Positions 6,086-39,503 of a stretch of DNA of 64,000 nt are shown here, piece after piece. This DNA is from an uncultured Clostridiaceae bacterium (lineage in GTDB: Bacteria; Bacillota; Clostridia; CAYPLH01; DUMO01): the NCBI GenBank assembly GCA_964411505.1, contig CAYPLH010000011.1:11929-75928 (forward strand), read 5' to 3'. The notes under the pieces were generated by a model. It saw only the letters and a list, made by a program, of their open reading frames with translations. It had not been told where the DNA came from and searched no databases. Each line of letters opens with the position of its first letter. Positions within the stretch are counted from its first letter, which is position 1. Position numbers and translations under genes: made by a program.

Positions 6086-6297
6086 CATATTTTTGTTCAT
6101 ATTTTCTATTTGTTTCTATTCAATAATATGATTGTATCCCAAAACAACATTTCGTGATTTTTAAGGAGACAATCATAATGCTGGTATTCCGAATATTTCT
6201 AGGGAGAACTACATTTTTAGTACAGAATTTAACTTTGTTATCATCTACTGCAAAGTGAGCCATACAACGTTTGAACTGAAACGTATGGTTTTGTGTT

Positions 6298-6939: not shown

Positions 6940-8478
6940 ATGTCATTTAAAAAAGATGTTAATATGAAAAGTTTTAAAACTCCCCCTGCTTCCTATTGGA
7001 TAGAATCAGTAGAACAAAAGGAATATCCAGTTCTAAATAATGATATAAAAACAGATGTGCTTATTATTGGCGGCGGTATGACCGGCATAACAGCGGCTTC
7101 CATATTAAAAGAAGCAGGAGTTAAACTTGTTATGCTTGAAGCACGAAAAATATTACAAGGTACCACAGGCAACACTACAGCTAAGGTAACATCACAGCAT
7201 CACCTAATATACCATTACCTCATCTCTAAATTTGGTGTTGAAAAGGCACACCAGTATGCCGAAGCAAACCAAAGTGCAATCGAATTTATAGCAAAACGTG
7301 TAACTGATCTTAATATACATTGTGACTTTGAACGAAAATCAGCTTATGTGTACACTGAATCTGATTCCTTTATTAAAAACATAGAAAACGAAACAGACTC
7401 AGCCTTAAAATTGGGGATTCCTGCTGAGTTTGTAACCGAATCTACTCTTCCCTTTCAAATAAAATGTGCGGTTAAATTTAACAATCAGGCACAATTTCAC
7501 CCATTGAAATATCTACTTAAGCTTTTGGAAAACATCGAAGGAGATGACTGCCATATTTATGAAAATACACAAGCTCTTTCGATTGAAGGCAGTTCACCAT
7601 ACACAGTTATAACTGATAGAGGTAAAGTTGAAGCTAATAAAGTAATCGTGGCAACACACTACCCTATCTTTGATAAGCCAGGATTATATTTTGCAAGACT
7701 CTATCAGTCAAGATCATATATCATTGGTGCCAAAGTAACTAATACATTACCAGATGGAATGTTTATCAGTGCTGACGGACCTACCCATTCTTTTCGCACA
7801 CAGCCTACTGATAATGGTCAAATGCTGCTTGTTGCAGGAGAAGATCATAAAACAGGCCAAGGTGACAACACCATTTTACATTATGAAAGGCTTAAACAAT
7901 ATGCAGAACGTATATACAATATTGAATCAATTGATTATCACTGGTCGGCGCAAGACTGCATGCCAGTGGACAGTGTCCCGTTTATTGGCAAACTATCTCC
8001 AAATTCCGAGAACCTTTATGTCGCTACTGGATTTAAAAAGTGGGGCATGACCAACAGTACAGTATCAGCAATGCTCCTCAGCGACTTAATACTCGAACGT
8101 CCAAACCCTTGGCTGGATGTGTTTAATCCTAACAGGTTCAATATAGCGGCTTCAGCAGAAGAAATCACTAGCCAGAACCTTAATACAGCTGGAAAGCTTG
8201 TTGGTGGTATACTTAACATCCCAAGCGATGAACTTGAAACTGTTTTTATGGGCGAAGGTAAGATAATAAAGCTAAATAACAAGAAACTTGCTATATATCG
8301 TGATCATGACAATCATCTGCATGCTGTTTCTCCTTACTGCACTCATTTAGGTTGTGAGATTAAATGGAACGATGCAGAAAAAACATGGGACTGTCCATGC
8401 CATGGGTCAAGATATTCAATAGATGGTGATGTTATAGAGGGTCCAACAGTCAAGAATCTTGAAAGAATAGAACTGTGA
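6940..8478 (+). CDS. FAD-dependent oxidoreductase with C-terminal Rieske [2Fe-2S] domain
   Basis: Dinucleotide-binding motif DVLIIGGGMTGITAA and Rieske motif CTHLGC...CPCHGS. ATG at 6940 follows AGGAGG. Confidence 0.85.
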   Translation: MSFKKDVNMKSFKTPPASYWIESVEQKEYPVLNNDIKTDVLIIGGGMTGITAASILKEAGVKLVMLEARKILQGTTGNTTAKVTSQHHLIYHYLISKFGVEKAHQYAEANQSAIEFIAKRVTDLNIHCDFERKSAYVYTESDSFIKNIENETDSALKLGIPAEFVTESTLPFQIKCAVKFNNQAQFHPLKYLLKLLENIEGDDCHIYENTQALSIEGSSPYTVITDRGKVEANKVIVATHYPIFDKPGLYFARLYQSRSYIIGAKVTNTLPDGMFISADGPTHSFRTQPTDNGQMLLVAGEDHKTGQGDNTILHYERLKQYAERIYNIESIDYHWSAQDCMPVDSVPFIGKLSPNSENLYVATGFKKWGMTNSTVSAMLLSDLILERPNPWLDVFNPNRFNIAASAEEITSQNLNTAGKLVGGILNIPSDELETVFMGEGKIIKLNNKKLAIYRDHDNHLHAVSPYCTHLGCEIKWNDAEKTWDCPCHGSRYSIDGDVIEGPTVKNLERIEL

Positions 8479-9493: not shown

Positions 9494-11155
9494 ATGCTTG
9501 AAAACTTTTTACCTAAAGTAGATTTTGATTCATACGAAGACTTTTGTGAAAATTTTGAAATAAATGTTCCCAAGAAATTTAATTTTGCTTATGATATTGC
9601 AGATAAAATTGCATTGAAAACACCTGAAAAAATTGCTCTGGTATGGTGCAATGACAATGGTGATGAAAAAACAATCACTTTTGGACAGATGAAGCAATAT
9701 AGCGACAAAGCAGCAAACTTATTTAGCTCTTTGGGGATTGGTAAAAATGATAAAGTAATGCTAATATTAAAAAGAAAATATGAATTCTGGTATTGTCTAC
9801 TTGCACTTCATAAAATAGGAGCGGTCTGCATCCCTGCAACGCATCTTTTAACTGCTAAGGACATAGTATACCGGAACAATGCTGCAGACATTAAGATGAT
9901 TGTTTGTGTAAATGAGAATGAAGTAATTAAACACATTGAAGACAGTGAAAAAGATTCACCAACTTTAAGAACCAAAGCCCTTCTTAATGGTAAACGAAAT
10001 GGCTGGCTGGATTTTAGCGAGCAACTGGAAAAGGCTTCAGATGTTTTTGAAAAACCTTCTGATAAAGAAGAAGTTTCTATTAAAGATATTTCACTCATTT
10101 ATTTTACTTCAGGTACAACCGGCATGCCAAAAATGGTCCAGCATGATTTTACCTATCCACTGGGTCATATTTTAACCGCAAAATACTGGCAAAATGTTAT
10201 GGATAATGGTTTGCACCTTACCGTAGCCGATACCGGTTGGGCAAAAGCTGTCTGGGGCAAAATTTATGGACAATGGCTTTCGGGCAGTGCTGTGTTTGTA
10301 TATGATTATGACAAGTTTGTGCCTAAAAAATTTCTAGAAGTAATTTCAAAACACAAAATTACAACTTTTTGCGCTCCGCCGACCATATACAGATATCTTA
10401 TAAAGGAAGATTTTACAAAATACTCTCTTGACAGCCTTAAGTATTGTGTAATTGCGGGGGAACCTTTAAACCCTGAGGTTTACTATCAATTTCTAGATTC
10501 AACAGGATTAAAGCTCCACGAAGGTTATGGTCAGACTGAACTAACCTGCTGCATCGCTACATATCCATGGATGGAACCAAAACCAGGTTCTATGGGTAGA
10601 CCTACCCCTGGTTATGATATTGATCTAATAGATGATGAGGGAAACTCCTGTGAGCCTGGAGAAGAAGGTCAAATTATTATTCGAACCAGCAAAACCAAAC
10701 CTGTTGGCATGTTTGACGGTTATTACCGTGATGATGCACTAACAAGTAAAGTTTGGCACGACGATATTTATTTTACAGGTGATATGGCATGGAGAGATGA
10801 GGATGGCTATTACTGGTTTGTCGGAAGATCTGATGACGTAATTAAAAGTTCCGGTTACCGTATTGGACCCTTTGAAGTTGAAAGCGCACTTATTGAACAT
10901 CCCGCAGTATTAGAATGTGCAATTACTGCAGTTCCTGATCCAATAAGAGGTCAAATAGTAAAAGCAACTATTGTGCTTGCAAAGGAATATACTGCTTCTG
11001 ACCAGCTTGCAAAAATGCTCCAGGATCATGTAAAAAAAGTAACTGCTCCATACAAATATCCGAGAATTATTGAGTTCGTTGATGAATTGCCAAAAACAAT
11101 AAGCGGCAAAATTAGACGTATTGAAATAAGAGACAAAGATAAGGGTACTGAATAA
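9494..11155 (+). CDS. AMP-forming acyl-CoA synthetase (medium-chain type)
   Basis: AMP-binding signatures [22 protein letters not shown]...[15 protein letters not shown] and [10 protein letters not shown]. Confidence 0.85.
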
Positions 11156-11282
11156 TCCGACCCAAAGAAACAATAGCCAATATCTGGAATCAGAGCCTAT
11201 TCTTCCGGGCAATAGTATTGCATATTTATTCTTTTACATGATATAATAACCTCGTTACCGAGGTTATTATATTGCCTCCGGC

Positions 11283-11374
11283 GGATTTTATGCGCGTGCG
11301 ATTTTTTTTTGCTAAAGCAAAAAACGCACATGCGCAATTATATCATGCAATTTCTTCGAAATTCATGATATAAT
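11283..11374 (+). promoter_or_regulatory. hairpin-rich promoter module ending in an extended -10 (TGATATAAT), copy a
   Basis: About 92 nt are nearly identical to 39074-39163. It contains the hairpins GCGCGTGCGATTTTTTTTTGC/GCAAAAAACGCACATGCGC and ATTATATCATG..CATGATATAAT, and ends with TGATATAAT at 11366-11374. Confidence 0.55.
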
Positions 11375-11383
11375 GAAAAAGAG

Positions 11384-11415
11384 GTCGCCCTTCACACAGG
11401 GGCGTGGATTGAAAC
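11384..11415 (+). CRISPR. solitary type I-C-like CRISPR repeat (single unit, no array)
   Basis: GTCGCCCTTCACACAGGGGCGTGGATTGAAAC has the GTCGC 5' end, an internal CGCCC/GGGCG stem and the GTGGATTGAAAC 3' handle typical of type I-C repeats. I saw no second full copy in the window. Confidence 0.6.
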
Positions 11416-11458
11416 ATGTTATAATATGTTTGTTTAGTTCCAATGAGGGAGGACTCTT

Positions 11459-11677
11459 ATGGATAATATTGAAACATTGACAACTTGCTGCAATATACTG
11501 CTTGACCTTTTATTAAAACTGCATAAGAACAAGAAAATAGATAAAATAACTTTTGAAATGAATGCAGAAATGAAAATCAAATTTTTACATGATAATATGC
11601 ATAGAATGAATAATAATGAAAAGGAAAAAGCTGAATTATTATTATATGAGGTTTACAATGTACTAAATCTGAAATAA
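11459..11677 (+). CDS. small hypothetical helical protein (72 aa)
   Basis: ATG lies 6 nt after the strong RBS GAGGGAGG. No recognisable family. Confidence 0.5.
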   Translation: MDNIETLTTCCNILLDLLLKLHKNKKIDKITFEMNAEMKIKFLHDNMHRMNNNEKEKAELLLYEVYNVLNLK

Positions 11678-11977: not shown

Positions 11978-12244
11978 TGGATCGTGTCTATTCAGAGGTA
12001 GCTCAAACATATTAACTGAAGAATCATCTCTAATACGGCTAGTTACAGCGAGGCTTAGGAAAACACAATTTAAAATGCCTTAGAGTTTAGTAATGTCCGT
12101 GCTGTTTGAACGCAAGTGAGTTCACGGAATTACTTAACGAGAAGGCATTTTAAATTGATTGTTTTCATTGCTGAAGCTGTATTGCAGTATTGGAGATGAT
12201 TCTTCATGAAAGAAAAGCTACCTCTGAATAGACACGGTGGATCA
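11978..12244. repeat. 267-bp foldback (MITE-like) element with ~105-nt imperfect inverted arms
   Basis: Left arm TGGATCGTGTCTATTCAGAGGTAGCT...TGAAGAATCATCTCTAATAC...CAATTTAAAATGCCTT pairs with right arm AAGGCATTTTAAATTG...GTATTGGAGATGATTCTTCA...AGCTACCTCTGAATAGACACGGTGGATCA. Confidence 0.5.
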
Positions 12245-12370: not shown

Positions 12371-14242
12371 ATGTCCAAAGAAAAAGGTACCATATCAATA
12401 AACACAGAGAACATACTCCCAATAATTAAACGGTGGCTGTACTCAGAAAAAGAGATTTTTTTAAGGGAGCTTATTTCTAATTGCAACGATGCAATAAGTA
12501 AGCTGAGTCGTCTTAACGCATTAGGTGAAACACAATTGCCCGAAGATACCAGATTTATGATTAAAGTTGTATTAAATAAAAAGTCAAAAACGCTAGAATT
12601 CATTGACAATGGTATTGGGATGACTGAGGATGAAGTGAAAAAATATATTAACCAAATTGCTTTTTCAGGTGCGAAGGATTTCATCGAAAAGTATAAAGAC
12701 AAGACTGACGATGGTCAAATAATCGGTCACTTTGGTCTTGGTTTTTATTCAGCCTTTATGGTTTCATCAAAAGTTCAGATTGATACACTTTCATATATTG
12801 AAGGTTCTCAGCCAGTAAGATGGATAAGTGCAGAAGGTTCTGATTTTGAAATGGATGTTTCTAATCGAACCGAAAGGGGAACAACGGTTACCCTCTTTAT
12901 TTCAGAAGATAGTGAAGATCTTTTAGATGAGTTTAAAATTAAAGAATTAATAAGGAAATTTTGCTATTTCCTTCCCTATGAAATTTATTTTGAAACTGAT
13001 GATCCGAAAACCGTTGAAAAATCTGATGAGAAAGACGATGTACCCGAGCCTCTTAACGATACAAACCCTTTATGGATGAAGGATCCAAAAGAGTGCACCG
13101 AGGAAGAATATAAAGATTTTTACAAAAAAGTATTTCTGGATTTTAATGATCCTTTATTCTGGATTCATCTTAATGTTGATTATCCCTTCAGGCTAAAAGG
13201 TATCTTGTATTTTCCAAAGCTTAGACATGAGATGGAGACAATGGAAGGTCAAATCAAGTTATACTACAACCAGGTGTTTGTTGCCGATAATGTAAAGGAA
13301 ATAATACCGGAATTTCTTTTATTGCTCAAGGGTACGCTGGATTGTCCCGATCTTCCTCTTAATGTATCCAGAAGCTTTTTACAGAATGATAAAAGTGTCG
13401 CTACAATATCTAACCATATAACTAAAAAAATAGCAGACAAACTGAATTCGATTTTTAATAATGAAAGAGATAATTATAATAAATATTGGGATGACATTCA
13501 TCCTTTTGTTAAATATGGCTGCATGCGCGAGCCAAAGTTTTTTGAAAAAGTTAAAGATATAGTTATTTATAAATCAACCAAAGACGATTATATAACTCTT
13601 AAAGATTACTTGGAAAGAAATAAATCAAAACATGAGAACACAGTATTTTATGCTAATGATGAAAAACAACAGGCTCAGTATATAAAAATGTTCAAAGAGC
13701 AGGAGCTTGAAGCAGTAGTTCTTAATTCAATGATTGATACACACTTTATTCAATTTCTTGAGATGAATGAACAAAACATTAAGTTTAACAGAATTGACTC
13801 AAGTCTTTCAGACAGCCTTAAGGATGATGAAAATAAGGATGTTGAGCAGAGTGTCAAAGAAGAACTTGAAAAACTCTTCCGTGAAACCCTAGGAAATGAA
13901 AAATTAAAAGTTCAGGTCGAACACTTAAAGTCTACTTCTGTCCCGAGTATTATATTGCTTTCAGAACAATCCAGAAGGTTTAGAGAAATGTCTCGAATGT
14001 ACGGAGGAATGAATATCCCTGATACGTTCGACGAAGACAGGTCACTTGTTTTAAACTTAAATAACAGTATTATCAATTCCCTTATAAAATTAAAGGATGA
14101 TGATAGCCGCAAAGAAGATGTTTCACTAATATGCCACCATGTTTATGATCTTGCAATAATGAGTCACAAACAGCTTGAACCTCACGAAATGAATAGTTTT
14201 ATTGATAGAAGTAATAAGATATTAATGAAACTAATGCAGTAG
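12371..14242 (+). CDS. htpG: molecular chaperone HtpG (Hsp90 family)
   Basis: Full-length HtpG-like translation (LYSEKEIFLRELISNCNDAISKL, IGHFGLGFYSAFMV, LNVSRSFLQ). AGGAGG RBS. Confidence 0.95.
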   Translation: MSKEKGTISINTENILPIIKRWLYSEKEIFLRELISNCNDAISKLSRLNALGETQLPEDTRFMIKVVLNKKSKTLEFIDNGIGMTEDEVKKYINQIAFSGAKDFIEKYKDKTDDGQIIGHFGLGFYSAFMVSSKVQIDTLSYIEGSQPVRWISAEGSDFEMDVSNRTERGTTVTLFISEDSEDLLDEFKIKELIRKFCYFLPYEIYFETDDPKTVEKSDEKDDVPEPLNDTNPLWMKDPKECTEEEYKDFYKKVFLDFNDPLFWIHLNVDYPFRLKGILYFPKLRHEMETMEGQIKLYYNQVFVADNVKEIIPEFLLLLKGTLDCPDLPLNVSRSFLQNDKSVATISNHITKKIADKLNSIFNNERDNYNKYWDDIHPFVKYGCMREPKFFEKVKDIVIYKSTKDDYITLKDYLERNKSKHENTVFYANDEKQQAQYIKMFKEQELEAVVLNSMIDTHFIQFLEMNEQNIKFNRIDSSLSDSLKDDENKDVEQSVKEELEKLFRETLGNEKLKVQVEHLKSTSVPSIILLSEQSRRFREMSRMYGGMNIPDTFDEDRSLVLNLNNSIINSLIKLKDDDSRKEDVSLICHHVYDLAIMSHKQLEPHEMNSFIDRSNKILMKLMQ

Positions 14243-36917: not shown

Positions 36918-36993
36918 AGGGGAGTAGCGCAATTGGCAGAGTAGCGGTCTCCAAAACCGTCGGTTGCAGGTTCGAGTCCTGTCTCCCCTGCCA
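36918..36993 (+). tRNA. tRNA-Trp (anticodon CCA)
   Basis: AGGGGAGTAGCGCAATTGGCAGAGTAGCGGTCTCCAAAACCGTCGGTTGCAGGTTCGAGTCCTGTCTCCCCTGCCA has anticodon loop CTCCAAA and an encoded CCA. Confidence 0.93.
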
Positions 36994-37531: not shown

Positions 37532-37843
37532 GTGGATGATAAAACCTTTGAATTGATGGAAAAGATGTATAGCGAATTTTCAGAATTCCGGAAAGAAACT
37601 AACCAACGCTTTGATGGTTTGAAATTTGAAATCATGCATGTTGGTAACCACGTAACCAAAATCGAAAATGAGCATGGTAAAAAGCTTGATGCACTTTTTG
37701 ATGGTTACAAGCAAACCTATGAAAAACTACAAGAGCATGATAAAAGATTTGATGATGTTGAAACCAAGCTGGACAACCTCTCTATACAGGTAAACGGTCA
37801 CGAATCTAAGCTTAAGGTTTTAGGAGGCGGCAGAAATAAATAA
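37532..37843 (+). CDS. small coiled-coil protein, paralog A (103 aa)
   Basis: GTG start 8 nt after AAGGAGG, downstream of TGATATAAT (37495-37503). The N-terminal 14 aa and C-terminal ~55 aa are nearly identical to the 39192-39503 product. Confidence 0.65.
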   Translation: MDDKTFELMEKMYSEFSEFRKETNQRFDGLKFEIMHVGNHVTKIENEHGKKLDALFDGYKQTYEKLQEHDKRFDDVETKLDNLSIQVNGHESKLKVLGGGRNK

Positions 37844-38913: not shown

Positions 38914-39086
38914 GTGATAAAGCCTGTAACTTTAATGGTTACAGGCTTTTGTTATGTATATCTATCATGATGTTTGTAATGTGATTTGGGGACTATTTTT
39001 GAGTGTAATTCTAGGTGATATTGCGCTCAAAAAAGACACAACATGTTAAGACATGAATACATCATTGCAGAATGGATTTATTTCCG
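38881..39086 (+). repeat. duplication unit B, segment 1
   Basis: Copy of 36961-37156, including the terminator hairpin and the GGGGACTATTTTTGAGTG...GACATGAATACATC block. Confidence 0.85.
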
Positions 39087-39163
39087 TGCGATTTTTTTTG
39101 CCACAGCAAAAAACGCACATGCGCAATTATATCATGCAATTTCTTCGAAATTCATGATATAAT
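39074..39163 (+). promoter_or_regulatory. hairpin-rich promoter module, copy b (same as 11283-11374)
   Basis: GGATTTATTTCCGTGCGATTTTTTTTGCCACAGCAAAAAACGCACATGCGCAATTATATCATGCAATTTCTTCGAAATTCATGATATAAT. Here it precedes the paralog B gene instead of a CRISPR repeat. Confidence 0.55.
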
Positions 39164-39191
39164 AGACCCAGTAAGTAAGGAGGCGGTATTT

Positions 39192-39503
39192 GTGGATGAT
39201 AAAACCTTTGAATTGATGGAAAAGATGTATAATGAATTTGGTATCTTTAAAAAAGATATGACTGAATTTCGAAATGAAACCAATAAAAGATTTGACACAA
39301 TTGATGGGCATATTATGCGGATTGAGAATGAGCACGGTAAAAAGCTTGATGCACTTTTTGATGGTTACAGACAAACCTATGAAAAACTACAAGAGCATGA
39401 CAAAAGATTTGATGATGTTGAAACCAAGCTGGACAACCTCTCTATACAGGTAAACGGTCACGAATCTAAGCTTAAGGTTTTAGGAGGCGGCAGAAATAAA
39501 TAG
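39192..39503 (+). CDS. small coiled-coil protein, paralog B (103 aa)
   Basis: Same RBS and GTG context as paralog A. The longer track ORF from 39072 would read through the promoter module and is rejected. Confidence 0.65.
   Translation: MDDKTFELMEKMYNEFGIFKKDMTEFRNETNKRFDTIDGHIMRIENEHGKKLDALFDGYRQTYEKLQEHDKRFDDVETKLDNLSIQVNGHESKLKVLGGGRNK

Follow-up and report, generated by a model that had tools for sequence, protein, structure and literature searches.

Solitary CRISPR repeats lying directly 3' of a promoter and away from cas genes have been described in viruses, where some of them are RNA anti-CRISPRs (Racrs), and the host system belongs to the matching subtype for 83% of those viral solitary repeat units (SRUs) (PMC10651486). 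RacrIC1, a I-C unit of a Bifidobacterium prophage, inhibits I-C interference and is co-transcribed with acrIC5; the survey in which it was reported covered mobile-element datasets only (PMC10651486). A further group of I-C SRUs is situated in cas operons and gives rise to CRISPR RNA (crRNA)-like RNAs (crlRNAs) of 48–50 nucleotides (nt), with an 11-nt Cas5c handle and a 3' end in a hairpin loop, which repress promoters matching 11–16 nt beside a TTC or TTA protospacer-adjacent motif (PAM), the targets being Nezha, Gabija and 'CRISIS' (bioRxiv 10.1101/2024.12.27.630466), and the CreR and CreA mini-arrays are likewise crRNA-like regulators (bioRxiv 10.1101/2023.03.10.532045). Here we describe a single type I-C repeat in a 64,000-nt stretch of DNA from an uncultured Clostridiaceae bacterium (assembly GCA_964411505.1, contig CAYPLH010000011.1, positions 11,929 to 75,928), hereafter the window, within which all positions are counted. 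As read from its sequence, the element is a solitary I-C repeat unit that occurs in this lineage only; on one side of it stands a promoter brought by a duplicated cassette (P1), and on the other the putative native promoter (P2) of a small, conserved gene that precedes htpG.

Identity and solitary state of the repeat

The 32-nt unit GTCGCCCTTCACACAGGGGCGTGGATTGAAAC occupies positions 11384–11415 of the + strand, where the initial annotation had placed a type I-C-like repeat, and it is single-copy in the window at up to three mismatches, with 0 matches for 100 shuffled versions; its 12-nt handle GTGGATTGAAAC likewise has no other exact copy in the window. The unit is 96.9% identical (31/32, coverage 100%) to GTCGCCCCTCACACAGGGGCGTGGATTGAAAC, the repeat of arrays of 18–40 units in a Clostridia metagenome-assembled genome (MAG; L039) and in the metagenome contigs L125/L133, L132 and L135, and in L133 the array follows a Pfam-confirmed operon of cas3, cas5c (Cas5d), cas8c (Csd1), cas7, cas4, cas1 and cas2. 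The lone difference is a C8 to T substitution that turns a C-G pair of the stem into U.G, and both the T8 and C8 variants fold as '..(((((((.....)))))))...........', that is, a 7-bp stem, a 5-nt loop and an 11-nt single-stranded tail. In the window, the stem pairs 11386–11392 with 11398–11404 around the loop 11393–11397, followed by the handle TGGATTGAAAC at 11405–11415, and the predicted Cas5c cut would fall between 11404 and 11405, by analogy with the processing of I-C crRNAs and crlRNAs (bioRxiv 10.1101/2024.12.27.630466). The unit thereby shows a length of 32 nt, a 5' GTCGC, an internal G+C hairpin, the 11-nt 3' handle (U)GGAUUGAAAC and a match to arrays beside cas3-cas5c-cas8c-cas7. The near-identity to arrays adjoining a full I-C operon and the identical fold bear out the earlier I-C assignment, and by this comparison the 32-mer is a genuine type I-C repeat and no chance look-alike.

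The wider family of the repeat is abundant. The form GTCGCCC-N8-GGGGCGTGGATTGAAAC is a widespread array repeat, found in at least 119 stretches of species-representative genomes when the loop was left free, and T8 is also present in long natural arrays of other loop variants, such as the 66 units of L089. The arrays of the Nitratidesulfovibrio vulgaris megaplasmid are 87.5% identical to the window repeat (28/32), and the Rfam model CRISPR-DR9 matches it below threshold (22.6 bits, E=0.035). No match to the exact T8 repeat was obtained outside the same strain; viral contigs gave none, and a scan of Joint Genome Institute (JGI) metagenomes gave the C8 variant only.

The surroundings of the repeat hold no trace of a CRISPR locus. 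No tandem array was detected in the window, no Cas homolog was obtained there at E<=1e-3 by tblastn with seven I-C Cas proteins, and an ungapped scan allowing up to 9–11 mismatches disclosed no degenerate or partial repeats in the flanks, so that the earlier description of a solitary, promoter-proximal repeat with neither array nor cas gene in 64 kb is upheld by the mismatch scan, the tandem scan and tblastn alike. A CRISPR array comprises at least two repeats with spacers of similar length, which the single unit of the window does not provide. The SRU definition used with SRUFinder asks for a known repeat to be matched with identity and coverage of 90% or more, an intergenic position and no full or partial repeat within 100 bp (PMC10651486); applied by hand, with the ungapped scan, it describes the window repeat well (96.9% identity, 100% coverage, intergenic, clean flanks). 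As a real solitary promoter-proximal I-C repeat with no array or cas genes in 64 kb, the unit is thus placed in the SRU class. A second, degenerate repeat at 11444–11475 was considered on account of the shared 10-mer ATTGAAACAT and was rejected, since only 11 of 32 positions match and the 10-mer, at 11468 and about 60 nt 3' of the repeat, belongs to the conserved N-terminal coding sequence of the downstream gene (I-E-T-L), for which the nearest relative has ATTGACACTT.

Differential degrees of resemblance were observed between the window repeat and the described systems. With RacrIC1 it shares a single I-C repeat, an intact hairpin, the lack of an array or cas genes nearby and, here as predictions, a promoter directly upstream and co-transcription with a small gene. 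The promoter expected of a Racr is predicted as a perfect extended -10 element 9 nt 5' of the repeat, within a cassette that is reused at another gene. Racrs, however, reside on phages or plasmids, whereas the window repeat lies in syntenic chromosomal core DNA: its flanking genes keep their order in a relative whose HtpG is 75% identical, and the exact repeat has no match among viral contigs. Next to it there is no Acr but a conserved, vertically inherited host gene that has a promoter of its own, and this gene stands 3' of the repeat rather than upstream. Compared with the crlRNAs, the I-C repeat, the segment of about 35 nt, the 3' hairpin and the 11-nt handle are alike, with a predicted length of 46–49 nt against the reported 48–50 nt; the crlRNAs, in contrast, lie between cas3 and cas5c and have a nearby PAM-flanked target of 11–16 bp, whereas no cas operon adjoins the repeat anywhere in the 64 kb and the only match to a target is at the level of chance. 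Canonical type I-C (Dvulg) arrays agree in repeat sequence (31/32 for the Clostridia type, 28/32 for N. vulgaris), length, hairpin and handle, but the window has one unit only and lacks spacers, a recognisable leader and any genes for adaptation or interference. Arrays that are orphaned or decayed are similar as CRISPR-derived sequences without cas genes; they differ in that the window shows no further repeats, even degenerate ones, and in that the flanks here are a duplicated cassette and a conserved gene.

Promoters, small gene and chromosomal setting

Two predicted promoters of the extended -10 type enclose the repeat. The first, P1, has the element TGATATAAT at 11366–11374 of the + strand, 9 nt before the repeat, exactly as originally reported, and transcription from it should start at about 11380–11382, 2–4 nt 5' of the repeat. 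The second, P2, has the element TGTTATAAT at 11417–11425 of the + strand, between the repeat and the ribosome-binding site (RBS), with the last base of the repeat 1 nt from its TG. The P2 element is 9/9 identical in the nearest relative, where it lies 32 nt before the ATG compared with 33 nt in the window, and it is the putative native promoter of the small gene. As the open reading frame (ORF) has its own promoter 3' of the repeat, the repeat is not simply the start of its only 5' untranslated region (UTR): the earlier proposal that the 5' UTR begins with the repeat stands, as a prediction, for P1 transcripts and fails as a description of a sole 5' UTR. Perfect TGNTATAAT boxes number 16 in the 64 kb, against 7.3 expected. 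Four of the 16 (three on the + strand and one on the - strand) are crowded into 187 nt at 11239–11425 and share the longer motif CATG(A/T)TATAAT.

P1 belongs to an 88-nt promoter cassette (11287–11374, + strand), made up of a long hairpin at 11291–11336 and then an inverted repeat with divergent extended -10 boxes, the second of which was found by the box scan as TGATATAAT on the - strand at 11337–11345. A second copy of the cassette is located at 39077–39163, with 93% identity (6 differences in 88 nt) and a final 56 nt that is identical, and the homology between the copies ends directly after the -10 box. There, within 39077–39200, the same box stands 17 nt 5' of a GGAGG RBS and of the GTG with which a gene for a 103-amino-acid (aa) coiled-coil protein begins, and this placement of the cassette before an RBS and start codon argues for a working promoter. 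The coiled-coil gene, which is phrog_15901-like, is tandemly duplicated (37532–37843 and 39192–39503) just after tRNA-Trp (36918–36993), and the paralog at 37532 has the same -10 box and 5' UTR without the cassette segment. In the repeat locus, 40 nt consisting of GAAAAAGAG and the repeat are flanked by a direct repeat of 10/11 matching positions, CATGATATAAT and CATGTTATAAT, which suggests recombination between the two -10 boxes, although the event cannot be reconstructed.

The small gene (ATG to TAA, 11459–11677, + strand) encodes 72 aa, as the initial annotation had stated, and its RBS GAGGGAGG is present at 11445–11452, at a distance of 29 nt from the repeat instead of the 28 nt first given, in a predicted weak hairpin at 11439–11463 with its loop at 11450–11453. 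The ORF had been called one of unknown family and a candidate partner of the repeat, and neither description holds. The nearest relative, the 'Clostridiaceae bacterium' MAG GCA_012839865.1, carries at the same position (L137, 7550–7813) an 87-aa ORF with 47% identity over 59 residues (E 7e-15); a second relative, L142, with an HtpG 71% identical, has a 71-aa homolog (985–1200) directly upstream of htpG, and neither relative has a CRISPR repeat 5' of the gene. Five more distant homologs of 69–84 aa were recovered by an exhaustive phmmer search of 1.84 billion representatives. The ORF had also appeared to be an ORFan, as a word-based search returned only itself, and this view was abandoned in light of the synteny and the phmmer homologs. 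The eight sequences of the family align over their full length, span 69–87 aa, are sparsely distributed and share the pattern TLxxCCxxLLxLLxxL...KIKFLxEN. The AlphaFold2 model of the 72-aa protein is a three-helix bundle (mean predicted local distance difference test score, pLDDT, 93.7), with no significant structural match in PDB or BFVD, and the protein has no match in Pfam, PHROG, NCBIfam or PDB sequences. A more distant member of the family does not adjoin htpG, indicating that the gene is linked to htpG in this clade alone. From its synteny and homologs, the 72-aa ORF is a real, vertically inherited host gene and not cargo. Besides these homologs, the P2 box and the duplication of the cassette carrying the upstream promoter had been missed in the first annotation.

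The window itself is part of a Clostridia chromosome with a GC content of 35.7%, carrying RNase P RNA, five tRNAs, a cyclic di-AMP riboswitch and two Clostridiales-2 RNAs. The repeat lies in a gap of 1215 nt between an acyl-CoA synthetase gene (9494–11155) and htpG (12371–14242). The order of a helix-turn-helix (HTH)-cupin gene, the acyl-CoA synthetase gene, the small ORF, htpG, PNP, an aminotransferase gene and a two-component system is shared with the nearest relative, which is present in two metagenomes as well, and with this synteny intact the repeat does not sit on a mobile element; as judged from gene order, the locus is syntenic chromosomal core. The corresponding intergenic region of the nearest relative measures 634 nt, and the extra length in the window has two sources, the upstream one being the cassette with the hairpins and the downstream one a stretch of about 590 nt, inclusive of a 254-nt near-perfect foldback at 11983–12236. 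This foldback, located 5' of the htpG promoter, contains nested inverted repeats of 21, 23 and 29 nt, does not occur in the relatives and is matched by no Rfam model; between 11100 and 12400, Rfam yields nothing besides the sub-threshold CRISPR-DR9. A perfect palindrome with 14-bp arms follows the acyl-CoA synthetase gene at 11241–11272. Assemblies of the same strain match the window where they cover it, save one base in the foldback, with the metagenome L001 breaking in the foldback and the Logan assembly L124 ending within the palindrome. The impression of decayed accessory DNA that the region first gave is thus right for the lineage-specific insertions (the cassette, the repeat and the 254-nt foldback) and wrong in that one conserved gene lies among them.

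Candidate roles of the repeat

The reading that we favour, tentatively and at somewhat less than an even chance, is that the repeat is an expressed repeat mimic, which a type I-C Cas5c and Cascade would cut and load if present. Transcription from P1 would begin 2–4 nt before the repeat, so that the small-gene mRNA would have a long leader isoform with the hairpin and the 11-nt handle at its 5' end, and P2 would give a short isoform without the repeat. Were a type I-C system present in the cell, the hairpin would be recognised by Cas5c and cleaved at its 3' base after G11404 (11404/11405), leaving UGGAUUGAAAC as a 5' handle on the leader, and the Cascade subunits could load on this handle and the next ~35 nt, reaching into the RBS. 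The resulting RNA would resemble a crRNA and sequester Cas proteins as an RNA anti-CRISPR or decoy does, and it would have no legitimate DNA target, because its own locus has no PAM (AAC instead of TTC). As a side effect the long mRNA isoform would be cut or masked, with P2 still supplying repeat-free mRNA. The T8 change supports such a mimic in that it keeps the hairpin through U.G, with the fold and the 11-nt tail unchanged. Also in its favour are the near-identity to repeats beside a full I-C operon, the perfect P1 box with the reuse of its cassette, and an arrangement in which a lone repeat far from cas genes directly follows a promoter, as is characteristic of the published SRUs. The predicted hairpin loop over the RBS (11450–11453) lies 46–49 nt from the predicted cut and folds no better than shuffled sequences.

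Several observations weigh against this mimic. The repeat is neither on a mobile element nor near acr genes, unlike the validated Racrs, and it is not obvious what a host would gain by encoding an inhibitor of its own CRISPR system. No I-C system was found within 64 kb by tblastn, none from this organism was among the at least 119 stretches listed in the species-representative genome scan, and the list of Cas8c homologs includes no protein with the source signature of this genome, which leaves no evidence that the host has such a system. The repeat is known from one strain only, identical in three assemblies, and consequently there is no sign of purifying selection on it. The RNA folds are not better than those of shuffles (z about -1.6), and a consensus sigma-70 scan called neither P1 nor P2, because both are extended -10 promoters with no -35 hexamer. 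Nothing in the analysis demonstrates a function for the repeat.

Nearly as likely as the mimic is an inert stranded fragment, in which a single repeat, with or without the cassette, was transferred from a phage SRU cassette or an array through illegitimate or short-homology recombination, and is recent and inactive, either as the host has no I-C Cas proteins or as the RNA has no consequence. The lineage-specific state of the repeat, absent from both relatives that keep the small gene, agrees with this, as does the intergenic dumping ground in which it lies (1215 vs 634 nt, with the duplicated cassette and the 254-nt foldback); the 10/11 direct repeat around the 40 nt points to recombination between -10 boxes, the single substitution in the 32 nt of the repeat implies change no slower than that of the cassette copies, which differ at 6 of 88 positions, and the window provides neither cas genes nor a target. 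Against a merely stranded fragment, the repeat falls precisely where +3/+4 of a strong promoter is predicted, with 1 nt between it and the -10 element that follows, both intact, and it is complete to the final base with its hairpin kept, although these are weak arguments if the event was recent. A Cas-independent cis element, in which the hairpin at the 5' end of the P1 transcript is a stabiliser, or the insertion simply brought a second promoter, with its CRISPR ancestry irrelevant, is improbable. In Firmicute mRNA decay, 5'-terminal stem-loops protect against 5'-end-dependent RNases, and the hairpin here would stand ~5 nt from the predicted 5' end; the insertion also clearly makes a tandem-promoter arrangement. 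Any hairpin would serve for such a purpose, however, which leaves the intact full 11-nt handle unexplained, and comparative support is absent.

A trans-acting crRNA-like regulator of the crlRNA, CreR or CreA type, in which the repeat and ~35 nt would guide I-C Cascade to a TTC-PAM promoter elsewhere and repress it without cleavage, is likewise judged unlikely. I-C SRUs act in this way on Nezha, Gabija and other defence genes through 48–50-nt RNAs with an 11-nt handle and a 3' hairpin, and the predicted geometry of the window is compatible with it. The predicted guide segment 3' of the repeat is ATGTTATAATATGTTTG, and its first 11 nt match TTC|ATGATATAATA at 39154, in the -10 box of the second cassette copy, with one mismatch. 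The known I-C SRU regulators, on the other hand, lie within cas operons near their targets, and there is no cas gene in 64 kb here; the mismatch of the sole PAM and seed match of the window is at seed position 4, with 1 such match observed against 0.5 expected; and the 'guide' consists of the small gene's own conserved promoter and 5' UTR instead of a dedicated spacer-like segment. In the search for a crlRNA target in the window, 39154 was the only TTC site with at most one mismatch in positions 1–11, and it was rejected, as nothing was above chance. Very improbable, finally, is the last repeat of an array with its leader that decayed in situ or collapsed by recombination between repeats, as the initial annotation had proposed among its readings. 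The repeat does stand alone, away from any cas genes, and an array may shrink to a single repeat, as the one-repeat or decayed arrays beside cas2 in L099 and L272 illustrate elsewhere, but positive evidence for such a remnant is lacking in the flanks, in the leader comparison and in the two relatives. No degenerate repeat or spacer-sized periodicity appears on either side. On the upstream side lies duplicated promoter DNA that also serves another gene, unlike any of the I-C leaders examined, most of which share a CGCGAAA-type motif that is absent here, and leader homology was discarded, as 11156–11383 has no similarity to the upstream regions of six I-C arrays; the downstream DNA is a conserved promoter and gene. 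In both of the relatives examined the site is free of arrays and cas genes, although a normal array in relatives had been named beforehand as the mark of a simple remnant, and this history would need an operon of 7 genes to have been lost cleanly where two syntenic core genes enclose it. The other early proposal, a solitary repeat of the kind reported as RNA anti-CRISPRs on mobile elements, survives as to the SRU class and fails as to the setting, the locus being syntenic core and the ORF not a partner.

Related solitary repeats and significance

Solitary repeats of this family also occur elsewhere. Among viral contigs, ~23 of 31 stretches have a solitary repeat, several with an RBS and ATG 42–65 nt 3' of it, and solitary copies in other bacterial chromosomes include L003, between grpE and dnaK, and L092, among phage head genes. 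A distance of 42–44 nt from repeat to start codon recurs in the window, L143, L233, L150 and L092, and would place the RBS at the edge of a Cascade-sized footprint; a conserved spacing was nevertheless not accepted, since 81 de-duplicated solitary repeats do not differ clearly from the control side, and the clustering is therefore unproven. Hybrid mini-arrays were observed in L042 (6504–6600) and L066 (6991–7085), consisting of a I-C repeat, a spacer-sized segment of 31–34 nt and a I-E-type repeat (GTTxCCCCGC...GCGGGGATxAxCC). In the viral contig L164, the I-C repeat at 8182–8213 of the reverse-complemented locus is apparently inside an ORF starting 17 nt upstream (ATGGATAATTTAGACGA|GTCGCC...), and may be translated as well as transcribed. 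In L272 (7670–7810; Logan SRR33777083), a complete I-C operon with a GC content of 34% is followed by one intact and two decayed repeats, one of which starts with GTCGCCCTTCAC, like the T8 variant of the window, and ParB-methylase and DUF5681 genes adjoin.

The L003 copy, in Candidatus Electronema nielsenii (JAGIXO010000037.1), is a solitary consensus I-C repeat at 6149–6180 of the reverse-complemented locus, 29 nt before the dnaK start codon and 3' of a promoter-like region that contains TTGACA, and provides a second instance of a chaperone gene whose leader contains a single I-C repeat. In E. coli, the chaperone HtpG keeps Cas3 functional (PMC4782391). Three hints, namely the position of the small gene directly upstream of htpG in the clade, the HtpG–Cas3 relation in E. 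coli and the L003 repeat before dnaK, raise the notion that a repeat in the leader of a chaperone-linked gene makes the expression of the small gene report the CRISPR status of the cell, to which only a very small probability is assigned. Active Cas5c and Cascade would then cut the long isoform at 11404/11405, and the first ~35 nt, up to the RBS, would be coated or trimmed, leaving it untranslated; in cells without Cascade, or with Cascade saturated or inhibited by an anti-CRISPR, the long isoform would be translated. The chaperone link is a speculative lead and not a finding.

Published work on solitary repeats has centred on phages, plasmids and cas operons, and the present case comes from chromosomal core DNA, where the insertion is delimited by comparison with a relative that lacks the repeat and where the repeat is placed, by prediction, as the 5' end of a host mRNA. 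On the sequence evidence it is a real solitary I-C repeat, cleanly resolved, whose non-mobile setting far from cas genes is unusual, and a chromosomal counterpart of the solitary repeats of phages and cas operons. If the repeat is inert, it is a caution that a perfect, promoter-driven solitary repeat beside a small ORF can arise accidentally, and that a small ORF adjoining a solitary repeat need not be an anti-CRISPR. An active repeat would mean that host genes can be wired to Cas5c and Cascade through one such unit, or that a cell can carry a repeat decoy of its own.

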